DNA of 64,000 nt from Candidatus Terraquivivens yellowstonensis (GTDB taxonomy: Archaea; Thermoproteota; Nitrososphaeria_A; Caldarchaeales; Wolframiiraptoraceae), in contig JAKCEW010000001.1 of the NCBI GenBank assembly GCA_023539445.1, positions 75,484 to 139,483 on the forward strand, written 5' to 3'. This document shows positions 28,510-48,569 of this stretch, piece after piece (position 1 is the stretch's first letter; each line of letters begins with the position of its first letter). Below the pieces are notes generated by a model. That model was not told where the DNA came from. It ran no database searches and saw nothing but the letters and a program-made list of their open reading frames with translations. Both the position numbers and the translations under genes were made by a program.

Positions 28510-28662
28510 GCGACTCACCGCTGTTATACTGTAGTATGTATGCGTTATCGCTAGAAATTTATAAGTCTTGGTGTAATGAGCGATAATATTGACGAATTTC
28601 CGAATGTGTAGGTTAGGGAAATGTATAATTGACAGCAGCATTTTCATGAGCTTGCGAGAAAC

Positions 28663-29475: not shown

Positions 29476-29613
29476 AATCCAATTACGCTTTATGTCGAAA
29501 ATATATCCGAATATCGTATTTTTAGTCCGAAATACTGGCCTCATTACATAAAAATTAAAACATTTATACAACTTTTGCTACGAAAAATGTAGCAACACTG
29601 CGGGGTTAGAAGT

Positions 29614-29787: not shown

Positions 29788-29794
29788 AACTCTA

Positions 29795-30640
29795 TTGAGG
29801 GTTGGACTGGCATACGACATCATGAGATGGGAAGAGAAAGCCCTCGCGTATGCCGTCAAGGATTTAGGTTACACACTTGAACTCATCCACGTCCCAGAAT
29901 CTGTTTTCCACCTTACCGAACCTAACAACAAAGGACTCGATGTAGTCTTCGAAAGATGTGTAAGCTTCTACAGGGCTCTGGCCTCTTCGCTTACGTTACG
30001 GAATCAAGGAGTCACAGTTGTGAATGACTTCGAGATAATAAGGAACTGTGGCGATAAGATGTTTACAACGATGGTACTCGCAAATAAAGGTGTGCCCGTG
30101 CCAAGGACGATGATAGCTTTCGACAAGGTAAGGGCGCTTGAGGCTGCAAAGATGATAGGGTATCCTGTCGTGGTAAAGCCGATATATGGGAGCTGGGGTC
30201 GGATGATAGCTAAGGCCGATGACGAGTCCTCGTTACTAGATATACTGGATTTTAGGGAAAACATGCCCTCGCCACACTTTCAGATACACTACATCCAAGA
30301 GTTCATCAGAAAGCCTGGAAGGGACATAAGAGCTTACTATGTGTGGGGAGAAGTTCCCGTTGCCATCTACAGAGTAAGTCAGAATTGGAAGACGAACACG
30401 GCGCTTGGCGCGAGGGCAGAGCCAGCCAACTTGGACGAGAGTACTAAGGAATTAGTCATAAAGGCAGGCGAAGCGATGGGCGGTGGTGTTTTGGGTGTTG
30501 ACTTGATGGAGGACGAAGACGGCAGGATATTGGTATCCGAAGTGAACGCTGTGGTTGAGTTCAAGAACACGGTTAGGGTTACCGGCTACGATCTACCTCG
30601 CAAAATAGTATCCTCGACGGTAGAAGTGTTAAAAAGATGA
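29795..30640 (+). CDS. lysX: LysX: RimK-family alpha-aminoadipate-LysW ligase (TTG start)
   Basis: It lies immediately downstream of lysW and has the ATP-grasp fold. The N-terminus LAYDIMRWEEK matches LysX. Confidence 0.8.
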   Translation: MRVGLAYDIMRWEEKALAYAVKDLGYTLELIHVPESVFHLTEPNNKGLDVVFERCVSFYRALASSLTLRNQGVTVVNDFEIIRNCGDKMFTTMVLANKGVPVPRTMIAFDKVRALEAAKMIGYPVVVKPIYGSWGRMIAKADDESSLLDILDFRENMPSPHFQIHYIQEFIRKPGRDIRAYYVWGEVPVAIYRVSQNWKTNTALGARAEPANLDESTKELVIKAGEAMGGGVLGVDLMEDEDGRILVSEVNAVVEFKNTVRVTGYDLPRKIVSSTVEVLKR

Positions 30641-31827
30641 GTTTGAAGATAATTCCGTTTGCCAAGCCACGGCTCCTTAGGCTATCAAGGGCTTATGGAC
30701 AGTATGTATGGGATGAAGTAGGGAGGAGGTACTTGGACTGTCACACGGGGCACGGTGTTGCTTTTCTTGGCCATAGGAATCCAAAGGTGGTGGAGAGTAT
30801 AAAGCGTCAGATGGAACTCATCATGACGGCTACACCAGCTTTCCAGACAGACATCGCCGACGAGGCTTTGTCGAAGCTTTCGAAGATACTTCCGAGCGAT
30901 ATGGACTATGTGTTCTTTCTGAACAGTGGGAGCGAGGCTGTTGAGCTTGCCATGAAGATCGCACGTAAGGTGACTGGAAGGAAGCGCTTCATAGCATTCA
31001 GGAACTCTTTTCATGGGAGAACGATGGGTGCCCTATCGGTCACTTGGAACCCGAAGTACAGAGAAGGTTACGATCCATTCCCATGGGAGACGAGATTCGT
31101 CCCTTACAACGACGTTGATGCAATAACATCAGAGGTCGACGAAAGCGTTGCCGCTGTGTTGTTCGAACCTGTCCAAGGCGAGGGTGGCTTAACCCCTGCT
31201 ACGCAAGAATTTGCAAAGGCTTTGATGGAGGCCTGCGAGAAGGCTGGAGCATTTCTCATAGTTGACGAGGTTCAGGCTGGTTTTGGTAGGACTGGTAAGA
31301 TCTGGGCACATGAGCACTTGAATATAAGGCCCGATATAATGGTCGCGGGTAAGTCAATAGGTGGGGGCTTCCCAGTAAGCGTAGTGGCGGTTAAAACATC
31401 AATAGGTGAGAGATTACGTGAAGGTGAGCACGGCTCTACGCATGGTGGAAATCCATTAGCGTTGGCCGCAATCTCAGGGGGCATAGATGCTTTGATTGGC
31501 GACTCCGTCCCATTAAAGGCCTCGCTCTCGGGAGAAAAGTTGTCTACAGAGCTGAAAAAGGTAGTGGAGTGTTGCGCCCATGTAGCACGTGGCGTCAAGG
31601 GGAAGGGACTTATGCTAGGGATAGAGTTAAGATTTCCTCCGGATGAGGTCATACGCGAATTGCAGATGAAGGGTTTGTTGTGCCTAAAGGCTGGAACTTC
31701 GGTTTTAAGACTGCTACCTCCCTACTTGATAACCGATGAGGATATAAAATTCTGCTCAGAAACCATCAAAGAGGTTTTGTCAGCCTGGAAACACGAAAGG
31801 GAGGTTCCGAAGCATGATGTCTGTTAA
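30637..31827 (+). CDS. lysJ: LysJ/ArgD: class III aminotransferase ([LysW]-aminoadipate semialdehyde / acetylornithine transaminase)
   Basis: PLP-dependent AT-III with LIVDEVQAGFGRTGK...MVAGKSIGGGFP. Confidence 0.85.
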   Translation: MSLKIIPFAKPRLLRLSRAYGQYVWDEVGRRYLDCHTGHGVAFLGHRNPKVVESIKRQMELIMTATPAFQTDIADEALSKLSKILPSDMDYVFFLNSGSEAVELAMKIARKVTGRKRFIAFRNSFHGRTMGALSVTWNPKYREGYDPFPWETRFVPYNDVDAITSEVDESVAAVLFEPVQGEGGLTPATQEFAKALMEACEKAGAFLIVDEVQAGFGRTGKIWAHEHLNIRPDIMVAGKSIGGGFPVSVVAVKTSIGERLREGEHGSTHGGNPLALAAISGGIDALIGDSVPLKASLSGEKLSTELKKVVECCAHVARGVKGKGLMLGIELRFPPDEVIRELQMKGLLCLKAGTSVLRLLPPYLITDEDIKFCSETIKEVLSAWKHEREVPKHDVC

Positions 31828-32878
31828 CGAAGTAAGGGATATGTTCCTTCGGATTTTAGATATTTACACACCTTCTGGCGAAGAGTGGAAGCTACATGAA
31901 CCGCTCCAAGATATATGCTCACGTCTGGGTTACGAAAATTACGGCGTGGACAAGGTAGGCAATTTTATCGCAGAATACGGCTCCGGAAAAACTATCCTGC
32001 TTGCCGGCCACATGGATACAGTCCCAGGTAGGCTTGAGGTAAAAGTTTCAAACGATGAGGTCTGGGGCAGAGGTGCCGTCGATGCTAAGGGACCTCTTAT
32101 GGCAATGCTCCTAGGCGCTGCCAAGGCTAAAGACAGCGTTAAGGGTGTTAGAGTCGTTGTAGCATGTCTTGTCGATGAGGAAAGGGAAGGCAAGGGTGCA
32201 AATTATTTAGTAAATTCTGGCTTCAAGGCCGACCACATAATAATTGGCGAACCTACTGGGACTACCGGTGTTGCAATAGGTTATAGAGGGAGCCTAACGG
32301 TTAGAGTTAACGTATCAGCAAGCGGTGGTCACAGTAGCGCACCATATATGGGGGAATCAGCACTCGATAAGTTCTTCGCCCTTTGGGAAGAAATTAAGCG
32401 CAACTTCTCGGGCAGAGGTTATGACGAGACTTCGGCATGCATAACTGTTTTAGAGGCCGGAGATTGGCCGACGAAACTTCCAGAGTTCGTGAAGGCCGTT
32501 ATCAACATAAGGATTCCGTGTAATATGTTTTCGAAGCAAATATTGAGCAAACTTGAAGAGCTATGTTTGGAACATGGTTGCGAACTTTCAGTCCTAGAAA
32601 GGACAGAGCCTGTCAAGGTTAGCCTGTCCAGCCCAGTCCCTAGGTCTTTGATTAGGAGCATGTTGAAAATGGGTATGAAGCCGAAGGCCGTAATGAAGAC
32701 CGGGACGAGCGATATGAACGTAATCTACAAAATATCACCGGATATAGCGGCCTATGGGCCTGGAGACTCCCTTCTGGCACACACTACGTTGGAGAGAATC
32801 CCCATAAAGGATATTTTAACCGCAGCAGAAGTTTACAAGAATTGCATACTCGAACTCGCATCTATTGACCAAACCTGA
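31814..32878 (+). CDS. lysK: LysK/ArgE: M20-family [LysW]-lysine/ornithine hydrolase
   Basis: M20 peptidase metal ligands (AGHMDTVPG...GAVDAKG...EE). Confidence 0.8.
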   Translation: MMSVNEVRDMFLRILDIYTPSGEEWKLHEPLQDICSRLGYENYGVDKVGNFIAEYGSGKTILLAGHMDTVPGRLEVKVSNDEVWGRGAVDAKGPLMAMLLGAAKAKDSVKGVRVVVACLVDEEREGKGANYLVNSGFKADHIIIGEPTGTTGVAIGYRGSLTVRVNVSASGGHSSAPYMGESALDKFFALWEEIKRNFSGRGYDETSACITVLEAGDWPTKLPEFVKAVINIRIPCNMFSKQILSKLEELCLEHGCELSVLERTEPVKVSLSSPVPRSLIRSMLKMGMKPKAVMKTGTSDMNVIYKISPDIAAYGPGDSLLAHTTLERIPIKDILTAAEVYKNCILELASIDQT

Positions 32879-32965
32879 TGAGTAAGTGCCCATCACACAA
32901 GCCTTTTTTAGAAGTACTCACGACCTTGCTATGAAACTGCCAGTATTCAATGAGGGTGGCCTGCA

Positions 32966-34402
32966 TTGCACAGAAAAGGTAGAATCGAACGTGAGTTTGA
33001 CATAGATGCAGCCAAGTACATTTCATCACTTCACTTTGATAAGGAGATACTGGAAAGTGTTATCTTGGTAAACATAACGCATGTGAAGCTTCTGGAGAAA
33101 ATAGGTGTAATACCCTCGGACCTTGCTGAGAAAGCTGAAAGATATCTCCAAGAGATGTTAACAAAACCGCCAAGTCTGGATGATCCAAGATATGAGGATG
33201 TGCATATGGTGATTGAAGCCGAATTAACAAAATACGTACCTCAAATCGGTGCATCGCTTGCTCTCGGTAAGAGCAGAAACGACGCAGTCGTCACGGCAAT
33301 AAAGCTCAGACTTAAGGAGAGGCTTTTGAACTTTCATGAATGTTGTATAACGTTCTGCGAAGCTCTGTTGAGAAAAGCATTGGAAGAATCCGGGACGATA
33401 TTTCCCGTCTATACGCATTTGCAGAGGGCCGCACCAGCAACATTTGGATTCGTCATGCACTCTTATGCGATCAGGCTTCTTAAGGCACTCCAACATGTAA
33501 AAATGGTTTACGAATTGGTCGATGAATCACCACTTGGCTCGGCAGCAGTCGCGGGAACCAGCGTGCCTTTGGATAGAGAGTATGCGTCCTCGCTTCTGGG
33601 TTTCAGTAAGGTAAGTCAAAATGCACTCGAGTCCACGACATCAAGAGACTTTATAATAGAGGCACTCTCGTGCTTAAGTATTATCGCTCTCATATTGTCA
33701 TCCTTATCCGAAGAGTTGGTGGTCTTTAGCTCGGAAGAGTTTGGTCTTATAGAGTTCCCCGAAGAGTTCTCGGCTACAAGTAGCATCATGCCCCAGAAGC
33801 GTAACCCTGTGGTCGCGGAAATAGCAAGGACAAAAGTCTCAGAGTTATTGGGGCTATTAACATCTGTCGTCATGATGGGTACAAGGCAGGTTAGTGGTTA
33901 CAACCTTGATCTCCAGCAGATAACTCCAAAATTATGGCAGGCATTTGAAATTATGGAAGAAACTTTACATGTAATGACAAAACTCATACCAAACCTAAAA
34001 GTCAATGAGGATAGATGTATGGCCGCATGTAGCCCGCCGACGGGCATCGTGGAGGTTGCAAATCATCTCTCCTTAAAATACGGTGTGCCTTTCCGCAATG
34101 CCCATGCATTCGCAGGTAGGATCAGCAAGCTTATGTATGAGGGGGGCCTCAATGAAGCCTCGCTCCAAAAAACTAAAGCAGAATTTAACATAGAAGCTCC
34201 CCTAACCCTCGAGGATGTTATGAAACTAATGGAACCAATAAGGGTTGTGTACTCCTACACAACGATCGGCTCAGCCAACCCAGAGTTGGTAAAGCGCGCC
34301 GTGGAAGATAGCATGATGGACCTCGAGGAAGAAAAAAGATGGGCGCGAAATAAAAGGGCGCGCCTCGAATTTGCCTTAAATAAGTTAAAAGGACGGGATT
34401 AG
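32966..34402 (+). CDS. argH: Argininosuccinate lyase
   Basis: Fumarate-lyase signature SSIMPQKRNP plus GKSRNDAV; 478 aa. Confidence 0.9.
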   Translation: MHRKGRIEREFDIDAAKYISSLHFDKEILESVILVNITHVKLLEKIGVIPSDLAEKAERYLQEMLTKPPSLDDPRYEDVHMVIEAELTKYVPQIGASLALGKSRNDAVVTAIKLRLKERLLNFHECCITFCEALLRKALEESGTIFPVYTHLQRAAPATFGFVMHSYAIRLLKALQHVKMVYELVDESPLGSAAVAGTSVPLDREYASSLLGFSKVSQNALESTTSRDFIIEALSCLSIIALILSSLSEELVVFSSEEFGLIEFPEEFSATSSIMPQKRNPVVAEIARTKVSELLGLLTSVVMMGTRQVSGYNLDLQQITPKLWQAFEIMEETLHVMTKLIPNLKVNEDRCMAACSPPTGIVEVANHLSLKYGVPFRNAHAFAGRISKLMYEGGLNEASLQKTKAEFNIEAPLTLEDVMKLMEPIRVVYSYTTIGSANPELVKRAVEDSMMDLEEEKRWARNKRARLEFALNKLKGRD

Positions 34403-34518: not shown

Positions 34519-34794
34519 ATGACCGATAAGACTAAACCCTCAGAACAAGAAAAAACCCAAACATTTTCACCTACTAAACACGTTTTAGTTCCAAAACATG
34601 AAATAATGACAAAGGAAGAGGTGGAGGAACTGTTAAAGAAATACCGCATAACCCCTCAACAGCTTCCCTACATTCTGGCCTCGGACCCAATCGTTAGGGA
34701 AATAGGCGCAAAGCCGGGTGATGTAATAAGGATTATAAGACAGACCGAAACTGCTGGAAGGTCTGTCTATTATAGACTGGTTGTGAGGGAGTGA
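34519..34794 (+). CDS. rpoH: DNA-directed RNA polymerase subunit H (Rpo5)
   Basis: HVLVPKHEIMTKEEVEELLKKYRI...YILASDPIVREIGAKPGDVIRIIR is RpoH. Confidence 0.85.
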   Translation: MTDKTKPSEQEKTQTFSPTKHVLVPKHEIMTKEEVEELLKKYRITPQQLPYILASDPIVREIGAKPGDVIRIIRQTETAGRSVYYRLVVRE

Positions 34795-34797
34795 GAG

Positions 34798-37700
34798 ATG
34801 CAGAAAGAGAAAGACCACAAGCTTACCGTAGAAGATCTTTGGTACGTCGCTAGGAGTTTCATAGAAGAAGAAGGATTGGTTCAGCACCAAATCAGATCAT
34901 ACAACTATTTTGTTAGAAAGGGTCTCCAAGACCTTGTCAACTCTTTAGAAGTTCAGGAAATTAAGACGAAGCACGGAACGCTGACCTTCAAGTTTGGGAC
35001 GATAGAAATAGGCAAACCACGCATTATCGAAATAGACGGAACAATTAACGACAACATAACGCCTGCCGAATGTAGGCTTAGGAAGCTTACGTACGCGGCA
35101 CCGTTATACGCTAAGATGAATTTGTATTTAGACGGTAGGCTTCTGTCGTCGGAAAATGTAGAGGTTGGAATAATACCGGTGATGGTAAAGAGCGACATAT
35201 GCCCATTATCAAAGATGACCCACGAGGAGCTATTGGCTATAGGCGAAGACCCGATGGACCCAGGGGGTTATTTCATAATCAACGGCTCGGAGCGTGTAAT
35301 AGTTGCTATAGAGGATCTAGCACCTAACAAGATACTCGTAACGGAAAAGGACGTTGGCGGTAAGCCACAATACTCCGCTGTCGTGCTATCTTCTGCGTTT
35401 GGCAGACAGGCTAAAGTCGAGGTTACATACAGAGAGGGTGGCCCGATAAGGGTTTTCTTCTCAAGAATCTACAAAGGCATACCCATCATAATCCTTCTCA
35501 GAGCATTGGGTATGACAAACGACAGAGAGATCGTAAACTTCGTATCACCGGTGAAGGAAGTCCAAGAACTGCTGGAGCTCCCCTTCAAGGAAGCAGAAGG
35601 AATAGAGACCGTCGAGGATGCCCTGAAGTACATAGGCAACAAGATAGCATTTGGATATGCTGAAGAGTATAGGGTGCAAAGGGCTGAGCAGCTGATAGAC
35701 AACGTTCTGCTACCGCATATCGGGACGGATAAAGCATCGAGATATCTTAAGGCAATATTCTTATGCGACATGATGGGCAGGGTACTCGAGACCAGTTTGG
35801 GTCTTAGGAAGCCCAGTGATAAGGACCATTATGCCAACAAACGTGTGAAGCTCGCAACGCCCCTGTTAATGGAGCTGTATAGGATGGCATTCCTGAAGCT
35901 CATAAGGGATATAAGGTATCAGCTGGAAAAGTTGCTAACCATAAGACAGCCGACATCGATATCAACGTTTGTCAGGCCAGGAATAGTTGCCGACTTCGTT
36001 AAGCATGCCTTTGCAACCGGAAACTGGCCCGGTGGTAGGGTTGGTGTGACACAGTTGTTGAACAGGACCAACTACTTGGCGACATTGAGTCATCTGAGAA
36101 GGGTGCAGTCACCTTTGAGTAGAAGCCAGCCGCATTTTGAGGCAAGAGACCTCCACGGAACACATTGGGGTAGGATATGTCCTGCCGAGACGCCTGAAGG
36201 TAGTAACTGTGGTCTTGTCAAGAACCTAGCTCTATCGGCAGAGTTCTCATTCCCCATGAATAAGCGCGAAGTTTTGGACAAACTCTATACACTTGGTGTT
36301 ATGCCCTTAAGCGAAGCCATAAACAGGAAAAAATTCTTGCCTGCGAAGGTATTCGTTGATGGTTTGTTGGTGGGCTTCCATCCCAATGGGCAGGAACTCG
36401 TCACAGATCTCAGAAACCTGAGAAGGAATGGTGAGATAAACAATAACGTGAATGTTGCGCTTTATAATTACAAACACGTGCAAGAGGTCTGGATAAATAC
36501 CGATGAGGGTAGGGTTAGAAGACCGTTAATAATTGTCGAAAAAGGTGTGCCGAGACTAAACCGCAATCATGTAGAGGCTATAAAGAATAGAATATCTAGG
36601 TTCAGAGACCTCGTGTCAATGGGCATCATCGAATTCTTGGATGCGGAGGAAGAGGAGAATGCGTTTGTCGCATTAACGCCGGACGCTGTAACGCCTGAGC
36701 ATACTCATATGGAGATATCTCCTTACTTGATGTTAGGCATCGTTGCATCAATAATTCCGTACGCTCAACACAACCAGTCTCCAAGGAACGTTTATGAGTG
36801 TGCTATGGGAAAGCAGGCCTTAGGCTTCTTTGCCTCGAATTACGAGATAAGAACGGACTCTAGGATGCACCTGTTGGTCTATCCCCAGAAGCCCCTCGTT
36901 ACGACAAGATCCGTAGATTTGATAGGCCTTAACAATAGACCGATAGGCCAGAATATGGTGGTCGCGATACTGTCAGCTCAGGGCTACAACATGGAAGATG
37001 CCGTCGTACTCAATAAATCGTCCGTAGAGAGAGGGTTAGGTCTTTCCTTAAGTTACAGAACGTATGAGGTAGAATCGAGACAATACCTTGGTGGTCAGAA
37101 GGATAAATTTGGTATACCCGAACCCAGCGTAAGAGGCTATAAGGGTGAGCAATACTACAGAATATTGGACGCGGACGGTCTAGCCCATATAGAGGCCGAC
37201 GTGAGCGGGAATATGGTAATAGTTGGTGTCATAAGCCCGCCGAGGTTCATGGAGGAATACACGCGTGCACCGGCAAGGGAAATGGTTTGGAGGGATGCAT
37301 CCGAAGTTGTTAGGCAATCTGAGAGCGGCGTCGTCGACCAAATATTCATAACTAGGACGGATGAGGGTAACAAGCTTGTAAAGGCAAGGGTAAGGACCAC
37401 GTGCTTTGTTGAGATAGGTGACAAGTTTTCATCGAGGCACGGACAGAAGGGCGTCGTTGGTATGCTCTTCCCGCAAGAGGATATGCCATACACTGAGGAT
37501 GGTATAGTGCCCGATCTGATAATAAACCCGCATGCATTCCCCTCGAGAATGACAATCGGTCAACTTATCGAGAGTATAGCAGGAAAGGTCGCCGCTATAA
37601 AGGCTGAACCAGTTGATGGAACGCCCTTCCTTGGAAAGAAGCTTGAGGAATTAAGGGCAGAACTTGAGGCTTTAGGTTTCAAGAGCTCAGGGACATCTGT

Positions 37701-38154
37701 GATGTATGATGGCTTGACTGGTAAGAAGTTTGAAGCTGAAATCTTTATCGGTGTGGTTTACTATCAGAGATTACACCACCTCGTCAGGGATAAAATACAC
37801 GCGAGAGCACGTGGACAGGTGCAGCTATTGACTCGGCAGCCGACTGAGGGAAGGGCTAGGGGTGGTGGTTTGAAGTTTGGAGAGATGGAGCGTGACTGCC
37901 TAGTCGCACATGGAGCTGCCTACTTGCTTTTGGATAGATTACTCGAGCAATCCGACAAATACACCGCATACTTCTGTGAAAAATGTGGCTTACCTGCCTA
38001 CTACGACCTCAAACAAGAGCGTTTTGTATGCAAAGTGTGCGGAAAGGAGGCAAGCATAAAGCCCGTCGTTATGTCGTATGCGTTCTACCTTCTACTGAAC
38101 GAGTTGTTAAGCATGTGTATTTATCCAAAAGTGAAATTGGAGGAGTTGGTGTAG
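34798..38154 (+). CDS. rpoB: DNA-directed RNA polymerase subunit B (Rpo2), unsplit
   Basis: 1118 aa, full-length B including the C-terminal Zn ribbon CEKCG...CKVCG. Confidence 0.95.
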   Translation: MQKEKDHKLTVEDLWYVARSFIEEEGLVQHQIRSYNYFVRKGLQDLVNSLEVQEIKTKHGTLTFKFGTIEIGKPRIIEIDGTINDNITPAECRLRKLTYAAPLYAKMNLYLDGRLLSSENVEVGIIPVMVKSDICPLSKMTHEELLAIGEDPMDPGGYFIINGSERVIVAIEDLAPNKILVTEKDVGGKPQYSAVVLSSAFGRQAKVEVTYREGGPIRVFFSRIYKGIPIIILLRALGMTNDREIVNFVSPVKEVQELLELPFKEAEGIETVEDALKYIGNKIAFGYAEEYRVQRAEQLIDNVLLPHIGTDKASRYLKAIFLCDMMGRVLETSLGLRKPSDKDHYANKRVKLATPLLMELYRMAFLKLIRDIRYQLEKLLTIRQPTSISTFVRPGIVADFVKHAFATGNWPGGRVGVTQLLNRTNYLATLSHLRRVQSPLSRSQPHFEARDLHGTHWGRICPAETPEGSNCGLVKNLALSAEFSFPMNKREVLDKLYTLGVMPLSEAINRKKFLPAKVFVDGLLVGFHPNGQELVTDLRNLRRNGEINNNVNVALYNYKHVQEVWINTDEGRVRRPLIIVEKGVPRLNRNHVEAIKNRISRFRDLVSMGIIEFLDAEEEENAFVALTPDAVTPEHTHMEISPYLMLGIVASIIPYAQHNQSPRNVYECAMGKQALGFFASNYEIRTDSRMHLLVYPQKPLVTTRSVDLIGLNNRPIGQNMVVAILSAQGYNMEDAVVLNKSSVERGLGLSLSYRTYEVESRQYLGGQKDKFGIPEPSVRGYKGEQYYRILDADGLAHIEADVSGNMVIVGVISPPRFMEEYTRAPAREMVWRDASEVVRQSESGVVDQIFITRTDEGNKLVKARVRTTCFVEIGDKFSSRHGQKGVVGMLFPQEDMPYTEDGIVPDLIINPHAFPSRMTIGQLIESIAGKVAAIKAEPVDGTPFLGKKLEELRAELEALGFKSSGTSVMYDGLTGKKFEAEIFIGVVYYQRLHHLVRDKIHARARGQVQLLTRQPTEGRARGGGLKFGEMERDCLVAHGAAYLLLDRLLEQSDKYTAYFCEKCGLPAYYDLKQERFVCKVCGKEASIKPVVMSYAFYLLLNELLSMCIYPKVKLEELV

Positions 38155-38155: not shown

Positions 38156-41100
38156 ATGTCCTACAGGGGTTCTGTGGCCGCTATAAAGTTTGGCATACTT
38201 TCGCCCGACCTCATCAGGAGAATGTCCGTAGCTGAAATACAAAACCCCGATACATACGGCGATGACGGTCTTCCGATACCCACGGGTGTAATGGATCCAA
38301 GGTTGGGGACCCTAGAGCCCGGCCAACGTTGTAAGACGTGCGGTAACACTTACCTTGGATGTCCAGGGCACTTCGGACACATAGAATTACCGGTTCCCGT
38401 TATACACGTTGGCTTTGTCAAAACTATACATACGCTCCTAAAAGCAACCTGCAGGTCATGTGGTAGGATACTTTTAAACGATGAAGAGATAAAGAGCTTT
38501 AAAGAAGAGTTAGAAAAGGAGAAACAGTCCGGGAGACCATACAGGCATATTTACTTCAAAGTAATACAGAAGGCCACATCGACACAGACTTGTCCGCACT
38601 GCGGCGAGAAGCAGCTAAAGATCGAATTGGAGAAGCCGACGACGTTTATAGAAGCGGCGGAGTCGGAGCTTGTAAGACTTCCAGCAAACGTTGTCAGAGC
38701 TAGGCTAGAGAGAATACCTGACGACGACCTAGTGTTGCTGGACATAGATCCTAAGAGCGCAAGACCAGAGTGGATGGTACTAACGGTCTTACCCGTACCG
38801 CCTGTTTATGTAAGGCCATCCATCACGCTTGAATCGGGTTTCAGGTCAGAAGATGACCTGACCCACAAGTTGGTAGACATACTCAGGGTTGCTCAAAGGC
38901 TTAGAGAAAACATAGCCGCCGGGTCTCCATCACCAGTCATAATGGAATTGTCAGACCTTCTCCAGTATCATGTAACAACTTACATTAATAATGAGGCGGT
39001 CGGAATATCGCCGTCTGTTCATAGGTCCGGCCGCGTACTAAAGACATTGGCGCAGAGATTGAAAGGCAAGGAAGGCAGGTTCAGGTTAAACCTTTCCGGC
39101 AAGAGGGTCGACTTCTCCGCCAGAACTGTCATATCCCCAGATCCCAACATTGGAATAAACGAGGTCGGAGTTCCCATAGAAATAGCGATGCAACTTACCG
39201 TACCAGAAAAAGTTACTGTATGGAACATTGAAAGATTAAGGGAATATGTAAGGAACGGTCCGGATAAGTATCCGGGCGCCAAGTACATAATCAGGCCGGA
39301 TGGTAAGACCATAAGGCTAAAACTTGCGCACGATTTAAACGAGCTGGCAAATGCTCTAGAGCCTGGCTACATAGTCGAGCGGCACCTCATCGACGGAGAT
39401 ATTGTGTTGTTCAACAGGCAGCCTTCGCTTCATAGAATGTCAATAATGGCCCATATAGTAAAGGTCCTTCCTTACAAGACATTCCGTCTCAATCTTGCGG
39501 TTTGCACACCATATAACGCGGACTTCGACGGTGACGAGATGAACCTACACGTTCCACAGAGCGAAGAAGCCCAAACCGAAGCTCGAATACTACTTTTAGT
39601 ACAGAATAATATAATATCTCCGCGCCACGGTACGCCCATAATCGGAGCCATTAGAGACTTCCTCACAGCTACCTACTTGTTGACAAAGGATGATACTTTG
39701 CTCAGCCTAAAAGAGCTGTCCTATTTGCTCTCAGCGATAGGGTATGACGGTGAGCTACCAGAGCCAGTGGTAACTACGCCGCAACCGTTATGGAGTGGCA
39801 AGCAGGTATTCAGCCTATTACTTCCAAAGGACTTTAGTCACAAATTCAGATCTACCTTTATGCCCGAGGAACCAGTCATAATACAGGATGGTAAGCTCAT
39901 AAAAGGTGTGATAGATAAAGGTGGCATAGGCGTAGAGAAAGCAAACAACATAATACATAGGTTAGTAAGAGACTACGGGCCTGATGTAGCTAGGGAATTC
40001 TTAGACAGAGTAGTGAGGCTTGCTAACACCTATCTGCGTATAAGGGGCTTCACTTTCACCATAGATGACCTAACGGTGCCAGCTGAAATTTACCGAGAAA
40101 TATCCAAACTTTTTGTAAAGATGGATGAAGAATTCAATAAACTTAAAGCGGACTATGAAAAGGGTAAAGCTCCTGTTTATCCAGGCGAGACGCCTGAACA
40201 ATCATTCGAATCTGTAATCTTATCGTTACTTTCAAAGACTAGGGATACTGCAGGCAAGATTGTGAGGCAAAGCATACCTCCATCGAATAATGCTCTGATA
40301 ATGATAAAGACTGGAGCGAGGGGCACATCACTTAACATCGACCAAATGATAGCTGTCGTCGGTCAACAGGCGGTTAGGAGGGAAAGGATCAAGAGAGGAT
40401 ACATGGACAGGGTTCTAACATTCTTTAAGCCAAAAGATCTGTCACCTAGGGCTAGAGGCTTTGTTTATAACTCGTTCATGAACGGCTTAGACCCGCTAGA
40501 ATTCTTCTTCCATATGGTGGGTGGAAGGGACGGTCTTGTTGACACGGCGGTGAGAACCCAGCAAAGCGGTTACATGCAGCGTAGATTGATAAACGCTCTA
40601 GAATCGCTGTACGTTGAGTACGACGGCACGGTAAGGACAACGGACGAAAAGAGAATAATACAATTCCAGTACGGTGAGGACGGTGTTGACCCTGCTAAGA
40701 GTGAACATGGACAGCCAGTTAACCCGACTCTGATCATAGAAAAGTTCATGAAGAGCTTGCCAGCAGACAAGCCCGCCTCCAACGAGTATATAATGTCAAA
40801 GTCTGAATGGTACAAGAAACTCATGCCTGAAAAGATTGTTGAAGAGTTGGCGAACGAACTCATAAAAGCGAAAGCTTCAGAACGTGTAGTTGATAACTCC
40901 TTTGAAGAAGCATATAGGGTTTATTTGAATTCTAGAGTAGAACCCGGTGATGCCGTAGGGGTCGTGACAGCTCAGTCAATAGGTGAACCGGGAACCCAGC
41001 TTACACTTAGGACGTTCCACTTTGCGGGTGTTAGGGAACAAAGCATACTGCTTGGTTTGCCAAGGTTAATTGAGATAGTCGACGCCCGTAAGGTCCCCTC

Positions 41101-41974
41101 CACACCTATAATGAGAATATATCTCCAGAAGGAATTCGCAAAAGATAAGGCCAAAGCGCAAAAAATCGCAAACCAAATACAACACACGGCTCTCAAAGAA
41201 ATAGTTTCCGAAGTGGTTATAAACTATAAGCGCGGTATTCTAACCGTTACGTTAGACACGGATGCGATGCATGAAAGGGGTGTCACTCTAAGTGACGTGA
41301 AAAATGCCCTGAAAGCTTACAAGCCAGAAGTGAAGGACACGAATATCGTCATCTTAAAGCCATCCGAGGACAGCGTACAAGCGCTCGAGAAGATTAGAGA
41401 CAAAATACTGATGGACGACAAAATGACGGTCAAGGGAATTAAGAAAATAACGAAAGCTCTGGTTGTACAGGAAAATGATGAGTACGTAATACTAACGGAG
41501 GGCTCAAACCTAAGAGAGGTTGTAAAGGTGCCTGGTGTTGATGCCACTAGGGTTATTACGAACGACATACATGAGATTGCAGAAGTCTTAGGAATAGAGG
41601 CTGCAAGGAACGCGATAATAAACGAGGCGAAGAACGTGCTACGCGAGCAAGGATTAGACGTCGACATTAGGCATCTTATACTCTTGGCAGATATGATGAC
41701 AGTCAGTGGTAGCGTAAGGCAGGTAGGTAGGCATGGTGTGATTAAGCTAAAAGAGAGCGTACTTGCTAGGGCGGCCTTTGAAATAAGCGTTCAAGTACTG
41801 CTTGATGCAGCGACCAGAGGTGAGGTGGATTACTTGAAAGGTAACGTTGAAAGGATACTTATGGGAAAGGAGATACCGGTGGGTACGGGCATGGTATCGT
41901 TGCTGATGGTGCATCAAGCTAACCAGTCGAATAACGAGGTCGGTGATAAGAATGAACATAAGGAAAGAACTTGA
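38156..41974 (+). CDS. rpoA: DNA-directed RNA polymerase subunit A: A' and A'' in one continuous 1272-aa frame
   Basis: N-terminal Zn motifs CKTCG/CPGHFGH, NADFDGDEMN at the catalytic centre, and the A''-type block GEPGTQLTLRTFHFAGV downstream. There is no stop codon at the position where most archaea split A'/A'' (around ...GEDGVDPAKSEHGQ / ...MPEKIVEEL). Confidence 0.9.
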   Translation: MSYRGSVAAIKFGILSPDLIRRMSVAEIQNPDTYGDDGLPIPTGVMDPRLGTLEPGQRCKTCGNTYLGCPGHFGHIELPVPVIHVGFVKTIHTLLKATCRSCGRILLNDEEIKSFKEELEKEKQSGRPYRHIYFKVIQKATSTQTCPHCGEKQLKIELEKPTTFIEAAESELVRLPANVVRARLERIPDDDLVLLDIDPKSARPEWMVLTVLPVPPVYVRPSITLESGFRSEDDLTHKLVDILRVAQRLRENIAAGSPSPVIMELSDLLQYHVTTYINNEAVGISPSVHRSGRVLKTLAQRLKGKEGRFRLNLSGKRVDFSARTVISPDPNIGINEVGVPIEIAMQLTVPEKVTVWNIERLREYVRNGPDKYPGAKYIIRPDGKTIRLKLAHDLNELANALEPGYIVERHLIDGDIVLFNRQPSLHRMSIMAHIVKVLPYKTFRLNLAVCTPYNADFDGDEMNLHVPQSEEAQTEARILLLVQNNIISPRHGTPIIGAIRDFLTATYLLTKDDTLLSLKELSYLLSAIGYDGELPEPVVTTPQPLWSGKQVFSLLLPKDFSHKFRSTFMPEEPVIIQDGKLIKGVIDKGGIGVEKANNIIHRLVRDYGPDVAREFLDRVVRLANTYLRIRGFTFTIDDLTVPAEIYREISKLFVKMDEEFNKLKADYEKGKAPVYPGETPEQSFESVILSLLSKTRDTAGKIVRQSIPPSNNALIMIKTGARGTSLNIDQMIAVVGQQAVRRERIKRGYMDRVLTFFKPKDLSPRARGFVYNSFMNGLDPLEFFFHMVGGRDGLVDTAVRTQQSGYMQRRLINALESLYVEYDGTVRTTDEKRIIQFQYGEDGVDPAKSEHGQPVNPTLIIEKFMKSLPADKPASNEYIMSKSEWYKKLMPEKIVEELANELIKAKASERVVDNSFEEAYRVYLNSRVEPGDAVGVVTAQSIGEPGTQLTLRTFHFAGVREQSILLGLPRLIEIVDARKVPSTPIMRIYLQKEFAKDKAKAQKIANQIQHTALKEIVSEVVINYKRGILTVTLDTDAMHERGVTLSDVKNALKAYKPEVKDTNIVILKPSEDSVQALEKIRDKILMDDKMTVKGIKKITKALVVQENDEYVILTEGSNLREVVKVPGVDATRVITNDIHEIAEVLGIEAARNAIINEAKNVLREQGLDVDIRHLILLADMMTVSGSVRQVGRHGVIKLKESVLARAAFEISVQVLLDAATRGEVDYLKGNVERILMGKEIPVGTGMVSLLMVHQANQSNNEVGDKNEHKERT

Positions 41975-42260
41975 GATAATAAACAGGACAGGGAAAGTCA
42001 TCCTAGGTTTCAGACAATCTTATCTATCGCTACTAAACGGTAAATCAAAACTTGTTTTACTGGCAAAGAACTGTCCGCCGAATATTGAGAAGAGGATTTA
42101 CATGGCCTCTAAGATGGTAGGTGTGCCTGTGATAAAGACGGAGCTGAGCTCAAACGAAATTGGCTATGTTCTCGGAAAACCATTCAGGGTATCAACGCTT
42201 TCCGTCTTGGATCCTGGCAGTTCAAACATACTCGAGGAGGTTGTACCAGAAGTTGAGTGA
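41952..42260 (+). CDS. rpl30e: 50S ribosomal protein eL30
   Basis: MNIRKELEIINRTGKVILGFRQS is the L30e N-terminus. The track start at 41943 (GTG) overlaps the rpoA end. Confidence 0.85.
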   Translation: MNIRKELEIINRTGKVILGFRQSYLSLLNGKSKLVLLAKNCPPNIEKRIYMASKMVGVPVIKTELSSNEIGYVLGKPFRVSTLSVLDPGSSNILEEVVPEVE

Positions 42261-42687
42261 AGGATTCAAACTTACAGAAAAAGAGATGAAATACATATCT
42301 TTGTTTGAGGCAGCAACCGGCGTAGCGGCTGTAGATTGTGTCGAGAGCGGTGACTTGGTGGTATTCGTTGTAAGGGAAGGTGACCTGAAGAAGGTCTTGA
42401 GTAAGGGTGGTAGCAAAATACAAGAATTCTCTAGGATAATCAAGAAGCGCGTCAAAGTAATTGAGCTTTCAGAGGACCCCAGTAATTTTGTCAAGAATGC
42501 CCTCATGCCGGCTAAACTTTCTGGGCCAGTCAGAATAGCTTTGAGACCCGACGGTAGGAAGATAGCAATAGCCTCAGTAGATCCAAAGGACAAGGGGCTT
42601 GCCATCGGCAAGAACGGCAAGACTATAGAGCTGGTCAGGCTTTTAGCCAAGAGACACTATAGCATAGACCACGTTACTATTCAGTAA
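42253..42687 (+). CDS. nusA: Archaeal NusA homolog (two KH domains)
   Basis: ...EKEMKYISLFEAATGVAAVDCV...GKNGKTIELVRLL KH motifs. The likely start is the TTG at 42253, which overlaps the eL30 stop; an alternative ATG is at 42286. Confidence 0.8.
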   Translation: MSEGFKLTEKEMKYISLFEAATGVAAVDCVESGDLVVFVVREGDLKKVLSKGGSKIQEFSRIIKKRVKVIELSEDPSNFVKNALMPAKLSGPVRIALRPDGRKIAIASVDPKDKGLAIGKNGKTIELVRLLAKRHYSIDHVTIQ

Positions 42688-42816: not shown

Positions 42817-43245
42817 ATGGGTAATGGGCTATTTGCAGCGAGGAAACTCATCCAAAACAGGAAGAAGTTTAGGTGGAGTCAGCGAAAGTACCGAATCAGA
42901 ATGCTCCAGCTTAAGCTGAAGACTGACCCGCTCGAGGGTGCACCCATGGCCCGTGGTATAGTTCTGCAGAAGATTGGGATAGAATCTAGGCAGCCGAACT
43001 CAGCCGTTAGAAAGGCTGTCAGGGTTCAATTGATTAAGAATGGTAAGGTCGTTACGGCCTTCTTACCAGGTGACGGTGCCCTAAACGTCGTTGATGAGCA
43101 CGATGAGGTGATAATCAGCGGTATAGGTGGCTCCATGGGCAAAAGCTATGGCGACCTCCCGGGCGTTAGATACAAGGTAGAGTTGGTGAACGGCGTTCCG
43201 CTTAACCTGTTAGTTACCGGCAAGGTCAAAAAGCCTAAGAGGTGA
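42817..43245 (+). CDS. rps12: 30S ribosomal protein uS12
   Basis: [28 protein letters not shown] is S12. Confidence 0.9.
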
Positions 43246-43811
43246 CGTTTTTGGTAAGTTTCAAGATATTCGATAAATGGAGTACGGATGGTATCGAGAT
43301 AAAGGACCCCGGTCTACAGCGCTATATTTGCCTTAAACCGATGGTACACTCTGGTGGAAGACACGAACATAGGAGGTTTGGAAAAGCTAACGTCAGCATA
43401 ATCGAACGTCTTGCAAACATGCTTATGAGGCCTGGGAGGAACGGTGGAAAGAAATCTAAAGCCCTTAAAATCGTGCGTAATGCTCTTGAAATAATACATT
43501 TGAGAACCGGAGCAAATCCTGTAGAGGTTTTGGTGAGGGCGCTCGAGAATGCCGCACCAAGAGAAGACGTAACGAGACTCAGCTACGGAGGGATAGTGTA
43601 CTTCAAGGCGGTTGATATATCCCCCCAGAGAAGGTTGGACTTAGCGCTCAGGTATATAACAACGGCCGCCCGCGAAGCCAGTTTCAGGAGCAGGAAAACC
43701 GTGGACGAGTGTTTAGCCGACGAAATAATACTAGCCTCACAGAACGATAGCAAGAGTTATGCCATAAAGAAGAAGCTTGAATTAGAGAGAATAGCCTTGG
43801 CGTCAAGGTAA
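43242..43811 (+). CDS. rps7: 30S ribosomal protein uS7
   Basis: 189 aa S7 in the str-cluster position. Confidence 0.9.
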
Positions 43812-43916
43812 GAAACCGCGATATCAAACATAAAAAGTTTTAGAAAAAGGCCCCTACAAGCTTATATATACCCAATCCAAAAACGTTGAACGTAAATAGT
43901 AAGCGGTGGAAGTAGG

Positions 43917-45212
43917 ATGTCTACCAAACCACACCTAAACTTGGTAGTCATAGGGCATGTGGACCATGGAAAGTCAACAACGATGGGTCATCTACTGTAT
44001 AAACTGGGCGCCGTTGACGAGAGAACAATTCAGATGTACGAGGAAGAGGCGAAAAAACTTAGAAAGGAGACGTTTAAGTATGCATGGATACTCGACAGGG
44101 TTAAAGAAGAGCGAGAAAGGGGGCTAACAATAGACCTTGCGTTCCAGAAATTCGAGACCAAAAAATACTATTTCACACTGATTGACGCTCCCGGCCACAG
44201 GGACTTCGTGAAAAACATGATAACCGGAGCAAGCCAAGCGGATGCTGCAATTTTGGTAGTTTCTGCAAAGAAGGGCGAATATGAGGTAGGAATAGCGCCC
44301 GGTGGACAGACAAGGGAACATGCCTTCCTAGCATTCATGCTGGGCATAAGGCAACTGGTTGTCGCAATCAACAAGATGGACGATAGCACGGTTAACTGGT
44401 CCCAAGAAAGATACAATGAAGTAAAACAAGGTGTGCAGGACCTGTTAAAGCGTGTCGGCTACGACGTCTCAAAGATACACTTCGTACCTATCTCTGGATG
44501 GTTGGGCGATAACCTCGTAGAAAGAAGCAAAAACCTTCCGTGGTACAACGGGCCAACCTTAATAGAGGCCTTGGACACGTTCCAAGAGCCACCGAAACCA
44601 ATTGACAAGCCTTTGAGGATACCGATACAGGCAGTTTACTCCATTAAGGGTGTAGGAACAGTGCCTGTAGGAAGGGTTGAAACTGGTGTTCTGAAACCTG
44701 GTGATACCGTTGTTATCATGCCGCCTAACATAAAGGCTGAAGTCAAGAGTATAGAGATGCACCACCAGCCTTTGCAACAGGCAATACCTGGTGACAACAT
44801 AGGCTTTAACCTGAAGGGTGTAGAAAGATCCCAGCTTGCAAGGGGGATGGTTGTCAGCCATCCGGACAATCCGTGTAGCGTAGCGAAGGAATTCATTGGC
44901 CAGATAGTGGTGATATACCACCCGACGGCTATAGCAGTTGGCTATACGCCAGTCATGCACATACATACTGCACAAGTAGCTGTAAAGTTCGTTGAACTGA
45001 TAGCAAAGATAGACCCAAGGACCGGACAGGTTGTAGAGAAGAACCCGCAATTCCTCAAGACGGGAGATATAGCGCTCGTGAGGCTTGCACCGTTACAACC
45101 GACGGCGCTCGAACCGTACTCCCAGTTCCCCGAGTTAGGCAGGTTTGCAATCAGAGATAGTGGTATGACAATAGCTGCTGGCATAGTCAAGGAGATAACG
45201 CAGAAGGCTTAG
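43917..45212 (+). CDS. tuf: Translation elongation factor 1-alpha (aEF-1A)
   Basis: GHVDHGKST, DAPGHRDF and NKMD G-motifs; 431 aa. Confidence 0.95.
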   Translation: MSTKPHLNLVVIGHVDHGKSTTMGHLLYKLGAVDERTIQMYEEEAKKLRKETFKYAWILDRVKEERERGLTIDLAFQKFETKKYYFTLIDAPGHRDFVKNMITGASQADAAILVVSAKKGEYEVGIAPGGQTREHAFLAFMLGIRQLVVAINKMDDSTVNWSQERYNEVKQGVQDLLKRVGYDVSKIHFVPISGWLGDNLVERSKNLPWYNGPTLIEALDTFQEPPKPIDKPLRIPIQAVYSIKGVGTVPVGRVETGVLKPGDTVVIMPPNIKAEVKSIEMHHQPLQQAIPGDNIGFNLKGVERSQLARGMVVSHPDNPCSVAKEFIGQIVVIYHPTAIAVGYTPVMHIHTAQVAVKFVELIAKIDPRTGQVVEKNPQFLKTGDIALVRLAPLQPTALEPYSQFPELGRFAIRDSGMTIAAGIVKEITQKA

Positions 45213-45243
45213 TAATCCAGCATGAGTAGGGGCAGTATCTTCG

Positions 45244-45555
45244 ATGCCTCAGATGATACGCGTTAAGCTTACCAGCACGGACTTGGAAAAGCTAGAGAGG
45301 GTTTGTAGGGAAATAAAAGACATAGCGGACAAGACGGGTACGAAGATTTCTGGCCCAATACCCCTACCTAGGAAAAGGCTCGTCCTTCCGGTCAGGAAAT
45401 CTCCATGTGGCGAAGGGACAAAGACTTGGCGTAAGCATGAATTGAGGATTTACAGAAGATTGATAGACATGAGCATAAGTGATCAGAGAGTTCTTCGCCA
45501 AATAATGAGGATACAAATACCGGACGAAGTAAGCGTTGAAATGACTGTTAAGTAA
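45244..45555 (+). CDS. rps10: 30S ribosomal protein uS10
   Basis: IRVKLTSTDLEKLERVCREIKDIADKTGTKISGPIPLP is S10. Confidence 0.9.
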   Translation: MPQMIRVKLTSTDLEKLERVCREIKDIADKTGTKISGPIPLPRKRLVLPVRKSPCGEGTKTWRKHELRIYRRLIDMSISDQRVLRQIMRIQIPDEVSVEMTVK

Positions 45556-46633: not shown

Positions 46634-47242
46634 TTGGGGGAAATGTCGCAAAATCAAAAGAAGGATGCGCCCGAATGGGTGGAGGATAGTGTGGTTTTTA
46701 GGGGCGTGATAAGACGAAGCGGAAATAGTTTAGCGATAACGATTCCCGCAGAGTTGCTTCAAAGGTTTCTTTTAAAGGAAGGACAGGAATTCGTGATGTT
46801 GGGAATGAGCAGGTCTAGGCCAGATTTCGAGGGAGCCATCCAAGTTTATTTGGGCTATTTCATCGTTTATGAAAAAGCGTTTGGGATTTCCCTTACACTC
46901 TCTGTTGATGAGAAGCTTAACGAAGTTTTAAAAACCCTTGAGCATCTAATCACAAAGTACGGTGCGACTAAATACACAAAACGCATTCTTGAGGAGAGTA
47001 GGTTGGAAATTAAAGCGACATTTGGTATGATAGCTGATGGGAGCTTTAAGAGGATGAGGTCAAAAGAGGAGGTAGAATCCATAATGACAGATATGCTGGC
47101 TGAGTTGCTTAGCATGGGTGTAAAAGTCGAATCATCCAACGTCTTCGAAGAGATACTTGAATGGAGAAACGTAGACCCGTCCATGATATCCAAGCTTCCG
47201 CACAAGACGATGGAAATGATACGATGGAAATGGGAAATATGA
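46634..47242 (+). CDS. Hypothetical protein with an AbrB/MazE-like N-terminal domain
   Basis: RRSGNSLAITIPAELL swapped-hairpin-like motif; the remainder has no recognisable family. Confidence 0.35.
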   Translation: MGEMSQNQKKDAPEWVEDSVVFRGVIRRSGNSLAITIPAELLQRFLLKEGQEFVMLGMSRSRPDFEGAIQVYLGYFIVYEKAFGISLTLSVDEKLNEVLKTLEHLITKYGATKYTKRILEESRLEIKATFGMIADGSFKRMRSKEEVESIMTDMLAELLSMGVKVESSNVFEEILEWRNVDPSMISKLPHKTMEMIRWKWEI

Positions 47243-47276: not shown

Positions 47277-48569
47277 TTGAGAATATATGCTGATTTACAC
47301 ATTCACAGCTATTATTCTGGTGCAACCTCAAGGAACATGAATCTGGAAGAGATTGCCCGATATGCCATAATAAAGGGTCTAGGGTTGCTGGGAACAGGCG
47401 ATGCTCTTCATCCGGGATGGTTTAAGGAATTGAGCGAACGCTTAGAGGAGATTGACAACACCGGAATCTATAGATTGAGGTTCTCCGAAAGCCCTGTACA
47501 CTTCATATTCCAAACTGAGGTTGCTACTGTGCACCAATATAAAGAAAAGGCAAGAAGAATTCATCACGTCATCTTAATACCATCGAAGGATGTGTCCATG
47601 CAGCTTGCAGATAGGCTCTCAACATATGGTGACTTGGCATCTGACGGTAGGCCGGTCCTTACGATGGCGCCCGCCGAGCTTGTTGATGTAGTCTTGGAAA
47701 CTGAAAAGAGATGCCTGATATTCCCAGCGCATGCTTGGACACCATGGTGGTCGGTATTCGGGAGCTTCAGCGGTGTTGATTCTTTAGAGGAAGCCTATGA
47801 AGACCGGGCTAAAGATATTTGCGCTTTAGAAACTGGACTTAGCAGCGACCCTCCCATGAACTGGAGGGTCAGCAGCTTGGACAGGCTCACATTAGTAAGT
47901 GCTAGTGATGCGCATAGTCCTTATCCATTCAGGCTTGGAAGGGAAGCTGTCGTGTTTGAATTGGACAAGCTCACTTACGATGAGGTTACCGATGCCATTA
48001 GAAAGAAGGACAGAAAGAGGATAGTTATGACGGTAGAGGTTCCGCCAGCATACGGCAAATATCACTGGTCAGGGCACAGAAACTGTAACGTCGGCCCTCT
48101 ATCACCAGAGGATGCTAAGAATGTGGGATACAAGTGTGTTGTTTGTGGCAAAAAATTGACAAAAGGTGTTGATGATAGGGTTAACGAGCTTGCGGACAGG
48201 CCTCCAGGCTACATACCGGAGGGCTCTATAGGCTTTAAATACGCTATACCCCTCCAAGAACTTATAGCAGTCTCAGAAGGCATAGACCTAGAATCCGAAC
48301 ACAGACTCACGTCTGGCAGGGTTTGGAAGGAGTACGCTAGGATAATATCCATCCTAGGTGACGAGTTTAGGGTAATGTTCGAAGCATCGGAAGAGGAGCT
48401 TAAAAGTGTGATGGAGCCTCAGCTAGTAAATCTCATAATGGCCGTGAGGCAGAACAGAATCAGGATAATTCCAGGGTTTGATGGGGTATATGGTCGAATA
48501 ATATTCGGCGCAGAAGAAAAGGTAGAAGAGCGAAAACACGTCAGTAAAAGGTTAGAAGATTTTTTCTGA
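47277..48569 (+). CDS. PHP-domain nuclease, endonuclease Q (EndoQ)-like
   Basis: DLHIHSYYS...GTGDALHP...FPAHAWTPW...SASDAHSP PHP motifs, plus a CxxC...CVVCGKK Zn finger. The overall length and block order match EndoQ as recalled from Pyrococcus furiosus. Confidence 0.65.
   Translation: MRIYADLHIHSYYSGATSRNMNLEEIARYAIIKGLGLLGTGDALHPGWFKELSERLEEIDNTGIYRLRFSESPVHFIFQTEVATVHQYKEKARRIHHVILIPSKDVSMQLADRLSTYGDLASDGRPVLTMAPAELVDVVLETEKRCLIFPAHAWTPWWSVFGSFSGVDSLEEAYEDRAKDICALETGLSSDPPMNWRVSSLDRLTLVSASDAHSPYPFRLGREAVVFELDKLTYDEVTDAIRKKDRKRIVMTVEVPPAYGKYHWSGHRNCNVGPLSPEDAKNVGYKCVVCGKKLTKGVDDRVNELADRPPGYIPEGSIGFKYAIPLQELIAVSEGIDLESEHRLTSGRVWKEYARIISILGDEFRVMFEASEEELKSVMEPQLVNLIMAVRQNRIRIIPGFDGVYGRIIFGAEEKVEERKHVSKRLEDFF

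Follow-up and report, generated by a model that had tools for sequence, protein, structure and literature searches.

Does the archaeon represented by the 64,000-nucleotide stretch of contig JAKCEW010000001.1 analysed here (positions 75,484 to 139,483; hereafter the window) encode the largest subunit of its RNA polymerase in one gene, and is this unsplit gene a peculiarity of its genome, a eukaryote-like trait or the mark of a larger lineage? A review describes Rpo1 and Rpo2 as split 'in many archaea' (PMC7289017). The gene in question, rpoA (rpo1), lies at 38156-41974 on the plus strand, where the initial annotation had described a fusion of A' (Rpo1N) and A'' (Rpo1C). We find that this gene is almost certainly the ordinary rpoA of an uncultured Caldarchaeales-related archaeon ('Aigarchaeota', class Nitrososphaeria). 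The fused gene is the normal state of this lineage, already known and published, and no peculiarity of this genome.

A single open frame spans A' and A''

A single frame of 1272 codons runs from ATG to TAA without internal stop at 38156-41974 (+), according to both the list of open reading frames (ORFs) and the translation, as had been claimed at the outset. A Pfam search of the protein returned Rpb1 domains 1-5 in order (PF04997, PF00623, PF04983, PF05000 and PF04998). The A'-homologous part comprises residues 1-866 (38156-40753). It matches the NCBIfam A' equivalogs NF006336 (1266.7 bits against a cut-off of 819; residues 6-866) and TIGR02390 (1253.2 bits against a cut-off of 1042.55; within the same residues), and residues 6-864 are covered by the PDB A' chains 2waq_A, 2pmz_A and 36rp_A (880 amino acids in the Sulfolobus/Saccharolobus chains). 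The catalytic Mg-binding motif NADFDGDEMN was located in the translation at residues 454-463 (39515-39544). The A''-homologous part comprises residues 876-1251 (40781-41908), which are covered by the PDB A'' chains 2waq_C, 2pmz_C and 36rp_C (392-395 amino acids in Sulfolobus/Saccharolobus); the A'' equivalog TIGR02389 matches residues 890-1251 with 456.8 bits against a cut-off of 420.65. Alignments place the junction, MKSLPADKPAS, at residues ~865-875 (40748-40780). The protein ends with a hydrophilic C-terminal tail of 21 residues (41909-41971), devoid of heptad repeats in the translation and overlapped by the start of the L30e gene. The fused length had been said to equal the sum of typical A' and A'' lengths, and the agreement is exact: 880 residues (2pmz_A) and 392 residues (2pmz_C) add up to the 1272 of the window protein.

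The same open gene is present in two other assemblies, ENA ERZ27247226 (257-kb contig) and JGI 3300029977 (80-kb contig). These differ from the window rpoA at 12 nucleotides, nine of the differences being synonymous and three non-synonymous. One of the latter, A870V, sits inside the junction. Such a pattern is what purifying selection on a translated sequence produces. Across the junction, the two alternative frames are each closed by multiple stops, and an open frame of 1272 codons in DNA of 45-47% GC would not be conceivable by chance. A missed stop in the window rpoA is very unlikely.

The A'/A'' junction

To place the join, residues 801-960 were searched separately, and the fused and split genes of named genomes were then multiply aligned. 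Sulfolobus A' residues 813-875 aligned to window residues 801-864 with five A' residues left over, and Sulfolobus A'' residues 10-96 aligned to window residues 876-960 with nine A'' residues left over. The alignment to split A' and A'' proposed in the initial annotation has the Sulfolobus pair covering the window protein end to end. Since the A' and A'' termini project onto the same ~10 residues (865-875), the two parts are directly concatenated, with no added linker domain. In the multiple alignment, the stop and ATG of the split lineages stand opposite window residues ~866-872 (nt ~40751-40771). The split point had been assigned to the interval between the peptides YGEDGVDPAKSEHGQ and MPEKIVEELANEL; both are present (residues 839-853, nt 40670-40714, and residues 890-902, nt 40823-40861) and do bracket it, the true point being narrower.

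The split position is the same in Hadarchaeota, Methanosarcinales, Hodarchaeota, Woesearchaeota and Desulfurococcales. At most of the split loci whose A'/A'' junctions were compared (L036, L062, L064, L066, L068, L075, L077 and L080), the A'' frame opens right after the A' stop and in the same frame, with the ATG 0-5 codons downstream; one Desulfurococcales locus differs, its A' and A'' frames overlapping. Most of these split loci also carry a GGAGGTG-like sequence at the A' end, inside the 3' end of the A' gene (for example GGGAAGGAGGTGGAATAAATG). In fused lineages, the junction consists of a short hydrophilic stretch that varies in sequence and length among relatives; a peptide spanning residues ~860-880 of the window RpoA reads FMKSLPADKPASNEYIMSK. 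The multiple alignment shows neither an ATG nor a Shine-Dalgarno (SD) remnant at this junction, in accordance with the claim that no stop or restart occurs there. Because the split state consists of an in-frame stop and a nearby ATG, one or two point mutations would interconvert the split and fused states.

Compared with the split Rpo1N and Rpo1C of Sulfolobus/Saccharolobus, Thermococcus and Pyrococcus (2waq, 2pmz, 4qiw, 8cro), the window protein has the same domains end to end, keeps the catalytic motif and has a length identical to the summed one. However, the split subunits are two polypeptides from two genes, with a stop, an SD sequence and an ATG where the window gene reads through.

Distribution and phylogeny of fused and split rpoA

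The best 120 protein relatives, drawn from a database of 5.8 billion sequences, are all full-length (1247-1288 amino acids) except for one partial sequence of 1065 amino acids. Among these 120, the relatives named Aigarchaeota, Caldarchaeum, Caldarchaeales, Wolframiiraptor, Nitrososphaerota or Thaumarchaeota are 63-73% identical to the window protein, and those named Bathyarchaeia 55-59%. One NCBI record of a relative is already titled 'subunit A'/A'''.

Gene organization was then surveyed at 80 loci, chosen by similarity to the query with one genome per GTDB species. A gene was scored as fused when A' and A'' homology lay within one stop-free frame, tested with separate anchor codons. There were 81 classifiable loci, including two of the window's own species, and one further locus was incomplete. 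Seventy of the 81 are fused and 11 are split. The survey of the lineage for the same fusion, another check foreseen in the initial annotation, gave a uniform result: all loci of Caldarchaeales/'Aigarchaeota', Bathyarchaeia, Nitrososphaeria and Geothermarchaeota are fused (70/70), the Nitrososphaeria including Nitrosocaldus, Nitrososphaera, Nitrosopumilus and Cenarchaeum. The frame of one fused locus (L030) reaches 1294 amino acids. The split loci belong to Hadarchaeota (three), Methanosarcinales (four), Desulfurococcales (two), Hodarchaeota (one) and Woesearchaeota (one). A tree was built from 77 sequences and 1233 columns by neighbour-joining, a crude method. Its 66 fused tips form one clade with no split sequence inside, within which the window RpoA groups with Caldarchaeales. 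In this tree, the fused clade has a nested position beside Hodarchaeota and Desulfurococcales.

Two Bathyarchaeia-like rpoA contigs, L016 (DATKOK010000090.1) and L082 (QMPS01000169.1), come from metagenome-assembled genomes titled 'Methylomirabilota bacterium' and 'Aquificota bacterium', which likely reflects binning contamination in public records. For RpoA, the closest match to the window among the GTDB species is Ca. Geocrenenecus arthurdayi (70% identity), and the protein database offers an 'Aigarchaeota archaeon' at 73%; for EF-2, identity outside the window's own species reaches 86% at most. The organism probably belongs to an undescribed Caldarchaeales lineage of genus rank or higher, found in several hot-spring-type metagenomes and without a close sequenced representative.

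Comparison with known RNA polymerases

The unsplit rpoA has been a textbook marker of the Nitrososphaeria/Bathyarchaeia group since 2008-2011. Kwapisz et al. (2008) and Brochier-Armanet et al. (2008) are said to have already made the point for Cenarchaeum and Nitrosopumilus. Table 1 of Nunoura et al. (2011) gives 'RpoA: fusion' for Ca. Caldiarchaeum subterraneum, Thaumarchaeota and Korarchaeota, and a split RpoA for Crenarchaeota and Euryarchaeota (PMC3082918). The genome paper of Nitrososphaera evergladensis reports that RpoA is likewise fused in Thaumarchaeota, citing Spang et al. (2010), to whom it also credits the suggestion that the split lineages branched later (PMC4084955). Asgard genomes have rpoA1-rpoA2 (PMC10833476), and a 2026 article on the evolution of archaeal RNA polymerase subunits does not discuss Rpo1 fusion or splitting (PMC13257274). 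The value as a phylogenetic marker that the initial annotation saw in the fusion is thus usable, but the marker is an established one and not new (PMC3082918, PMC4084955). The present survey extends the published fusion state to Bathyarchaeia and Geothermarchaeota.

The window RpoA closely resembles the fused RpoA of Caldiarchaeum, Thaumarchaeota (Nitrosopumilus, Cenarchaeum, Nitrososphaera) and Korarchaeota, which is likewise a single ORF of ~1250-1290 amino acids with Rpb1 domains 1-5. The position of the junction, the rpoH-rpoB-rpoA-L30e-nusA cluster and the clade in the RpoA tree are the same, and only the sequence has diverged. Identity is 64-73% to the named Aigarchaeota, Caldarchaeum, Wolframiiraptor and Geocrenenecus proteins and ~50% to the RpoA of ammonia oxidisers, the linker sequence being lineage-specific.

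With eukaryotic Rpb1, Rpc1 and Rpa190, the window protein has in common domains 1-5 and a single polypeptide across the homologous point. The arrangement had been called eukaryote-like on first reading, and this holds for the gene count. It does not hold for the features particular to the eukaryotic subunit. No heptad carboxy-terminal domain (CTD; YSPTSPS) was found in the translation, which ends 21 residues past the A'' homology without repeats. No Rpb1 domains 6/7 were found either, Pfam giving domains 1-5 alone. Nor is the foot expanded: ~70 residues lie between the conserved blocks that are separated by ~170 residues in yeast Rpb1, whose residues 879-1051 correspond to window residues 850-921. 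Since the CTD, domains 6/7 and the foot expansion are all lacking, we reject a specific likeness to the eukaryotic subunit. Moreover, the archaeal A' chain alone scores ~1045 bits with the window protein compared to ~870-910 bits for the whole of Rpb1, placing archaeal A' above any eukaryotic subunit.

Origin of the fused state

The common split point of Hadarchaeota, Methanosarcinales, Woesearchaeota, Hodarchaeota and Desulfurococcales speaks in favour of a single, ancient split. Given the identical split position in Euryarchaeota-type lineages, DPANN, Asgard and Thermoprotei, together with the monophyly of the fused sequences, one split and one re-fusion make the most parsimonious history. 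On balance, we lean towards fused rpoA being a derived re-fusion of single origin that marks Bathyarchaeia and Nitrososphaeria (and Korarchaeia), rather than a primitive eukaryote-like trait. Its distribution suggests a single origin of the fusion, from an ancestrally split gene, in the ancestor shared by Bathyarchaeia and Nitrososphaeria and independently of the unsplit Rpb1 of eukaryotes. Korarchaeota, listed as fused in the literature, would join this group (PMC3082918). Loss of the stop, or gain of a stop near an ATG, would switch the gene between its two states by one or two point changes. As a single nucleotide change can flip the state, rpoA may be a less reliable deep marker than has been assumed.

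In the fused clade, the largest subunit would be made as one chain of ~143 kDa and not as separate A' and A'', the last A' residues running straight into the first A'' residues via the short, poorly conserved hydrophilic stretch. The architecture of the enzyme is expected to be unchanged, because the A' and A'' ends meet on its surface, within the counterpart of the Rpb1 foot. Functionally, the sole consequence would then be that the two parts are necessarily made at a 1:1 ratio and assembled co-translationally, in place of translational coupling.

Several points weigh against this reading. The polarity of the change, derived fusion as opposed to retained ancestral state, depends on parsimony, on a crude neighbour-joining tree and on 80 genomes chosen by similarity, and the sample is without Korarchaeia, Methanomethylicia and most Thermoprotei. 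The single uncleaved 143-kDa chain is a prediction from the gene sequence. Finally, the gene was read from assemblies, and a stop would be formally possible if this one window were judged alone.

The best-surviving alternative holds that the unsplit gene is the ancestral archaeal and eukaryal state, kept in Thaumarchaeota, Aigarchaeota, Bathyarchaeota and Korarchaeota, and that the other lineages split it later. Bacterial β' and eukaryotic Rpb1 are indeed unsplit at this point, and the suggestion is reported in PMC4084955, where the 'early-branching, eukaryote-like' reading is attributed to Spang et al. (2010). However, the genes of Euryarchaeota-type lineages, DPANN, Asgard and Thermoprotei are split at the same alignment position, so that under ancestral retention the gene must have been split independently several times at this one site, unless the fused clade branches outside all other archaea. 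The nesting of the fused clade in the RpoA tree and a junction without eukaryote-specific sequence also stand against retention, which we regard as rather unlikely. The monophyly of the fused sequences in our sample and the split state of the Asgard representative (Hodarchaeota) weaken the 'eukaryote-like' or ancestral reading in general.

A recent fusion particular to this organism, independent of that of Thaumarchaeota and Bathyarchaeota, would be mechanistically easy, since one or two point mutations suffice and homoplasy could readily occur. It is nevertheless highly improbable: every sampled genome of Caldarchaeales, Nitrososphaeria and Bathyarchaeia is fused and falls in one clade, and no split rpoA was seen in the close Caldarchaeales relatives, with 70 fused loci. 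The probability that the gene is truly split and lost a stop or a frameshift near 40750-40830 through an error of sequencing or assembly is negligible, as we found no point in favour of such an artefact, the gene is open in the independent assemblies too, most of their differences from the window being synonymous, relatives of the same clade down to ~50% identity are all fused and of equal length, and the junction lacks any trace of a restart.

Genes surrounding rpoA

The cluster opens with rpoH (Rpo5; 34519-34794 (+); Pfam RNA_pol_Rpb5_C, E=1.6e-34), followed by an ORF for an unsplit rpoB (Rpo2) of 1118 amino acids (34798-38154 (+)); Rpb2 domains 1-7 were identified on the identical gene in L001/L002. 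The rpoB stop and the rpoA ATG are 1 nt apart. Downstream, the gene for ribosomal protein L30e (41952-42260 (+); Pfam Ribosomal_L7Ae; called as gene 6797-7105 in L001) overlaps the 3' end of rpoA by 23 nt. An archaeal NusA-like KH protein gene (42253-42687 (+); Pfam KH_5) and the genes for S12, S7, EF-1alpha and S10 (42817-45555 (+); Pfam matches) make up the rest of a complete canonical str/L30e cluster. The order of the RNA polymerase and ribosomal genes agrees with the description in PMC10833476.

Directly upstream of rpoH, at 24920-34402 (+), lies an amino-group-carrier biosynthesis cluster of the LysX/ArgX type, with two RimK/LysX ATP-grasp genes, a semialdehyde dehydrogenase, an amino-acid kinase, a class-III aminotransferase and an M20 peptidase, after which comes an argininosuccinate lyase. 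Just downstream of the ribosomal cluster, a 202-aa ORF (46634-47242 (+)) has an AbrB/MazE-type N-terminal domain as its sole match, and is followed by a 430-aa ORF (47277-48569 (+)) without a Pfam family.

A candidate mini-intron in the EF-2 gene

The EF-2 gene (fusA) lies outside the str/L30e cluster, whereas its canonical archaeal place is between S7 and EF-1alpha; it is found ~14 kb upstream of rpoA, adjoining tatA, S13 and endonuclease V. This gene (21759-23979 (+)) is interrupted in its P-loop codons, between IIAH and VDHGKTT, by an insert of 31 nt (21843-21873). The listed EF-2 ORF, 21925-23979, starts at position 42 of the Pfam GTPase profile, and the missing N-terminus is found upstream. 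There, an ATG at 21759 opens MPRVKKISEVVDILKNKDSIRNVGIIAH; the insert ACCTAAGGATGCTTTAATCCTTAGGGGGTAA then closes all three frames, after which VDHGKTTTTD… goes on in the +1 frame. Exact removal of the 31 nt restores an EF-2 of 729 amino acids with the canonical AHVDHGKT P-loop, the predicted exon join of 21842 to 21874 linking …ATAGCCCAT to GTAGATCAC….

The insert RNA folds into a 4-bp helix (GCCC/GGGU) flanked by the bulges AU^A and AA^G, with an inner 9-bp hairpin on the AU^A side and a weak outer helix of 1-2 bp. This is a bulge-helix-bulge fold, of the kind that the archaeal tRNA-splicing endonuclease cleaves, and it makes the insert a candidate mRNA intron; the enzyme would cut two nucleotides into each bulge, after U21842 and A21873. 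Because six assemblies from different samples contain the 31-nt insert, in one case with an extra G inside it, an assembly error is ruled out. Ribosomal frameshifting is ruled out as well, all three frames being closed within the 31 nt, and bypassing of the T4-gene-60 type is unlikely, the take-off and landing codons being unmatched (CAU and GUA).

The window also contains an interrupted tRNA (59099-59205 (-)), missed by ARAGORN, in which a complete Rfam tRNA model extends over 107 nt with an intron of ~30 nt, possibly at a non-canonical position. This tRNA indicates that the organism depends on the splicing of introns. For Ca. C. subterraneum, tRNA introns at non-canonical positions and a splicing endonuclease of the heterotetrameric type have been reported. 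Among archaeal protein-coding genes, introns are described in the searchable literature for cbf5 alone (PMC2738675), a 2025 paper still citing just those, and no paper combining bulge-helix-bulge introns with EF-2 was found there.

EF-2 inserts in related lineages

Close relatives (78-86% identical in EF-2) have intact genes of 728-729 amino acids, so that gain or loss of the insert is sporadic. Related uncultured lineages, among them more distant relatives with truncated EF-2 gene calls, carry analogous inserts of 21-36 nt at three sites within the first ~35 codons: after …IR, between IIAH and VDHGK, and inside the Lys codon of GK(T). At the window's site, L089 (~1084-1113) has an insert of 30 nt whose helix, GCGC/GCGU, differs from that of the window by a compensatory change. 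Two inserts occur in each of L091 and L093: a 30-nt one after …IR, whose removal restores IRNIG, and a 33-nt one at the P-loop site. L092 has a single insert of 32 nt at the first of these sites; in these three loci, the inserts fall within the first ~120 nt of EF-2. L090 (~48-68) has one insert of 21 nt, within the Lys codon of GK(T). When tested with a fixed geometry, the central helix was fully paired in seven of eight inserts and 3/4 paired in the eighth, and every splice restored the consensus. Compensatory changes occur in both the central and the inner helices across the related inserts.

Metagenomes were also scanned with a pattern that required a gap of 18-40 nt between two EF-2 exon ends. 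The 14 matches comprised ten genuine EF-2 genes (L095-L098, L100, L102, L104-L107) and four chance matches. In all the genuine genes, the central helix is 4/4 paired and an inner hairpin is present; their inserts measure 30-36 nt and represent at least five distinct sequences. The chance matches, with 1-3/4 pairing and no hairpin, serve as an internal negative control.

A search with an 80-aa EF-2 query was of limited use, returning mostly short fragments. N-terminal EF-2 fragments of 58-108 amino acids are called as complete genes in long contigs of 15-320 kb (P0146, P0147, P0162, P0180, P0181, P0204, P0205, P0207, P0218, P0219, P0228 and P0232), some of them named Lokiarchaeota, Promethearchaeota or Jordarchaeaceae. 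These fragments hint at an interruption further downstream in other archaeal groups, whether by an intron, an intein, a frameshift or an error.

Implications

The unsplit rpoA helps to place the window's organism in the Nitrososphaeria/Bathyarchaeia group. To what was known of this marker, the present analysis makes small additions: a residue-by-residue map of the junction, and the finding that, in most of the sampled split lineages, A' and A'' share a frame and are separated by no more than a stop and a few codons. The EF-2 insert, a by-product of this work, could matter more than the rpoA finding itself. If the mini-introns are real, they would explain truncated EF-2 gene calls in metagenome-assembled genomes, and an essential translation GTPase with one or two mini-introns in its P-loop region, in several uncultured thermophilic lineages, would enlarge the class of archaeal protein-coding introns.

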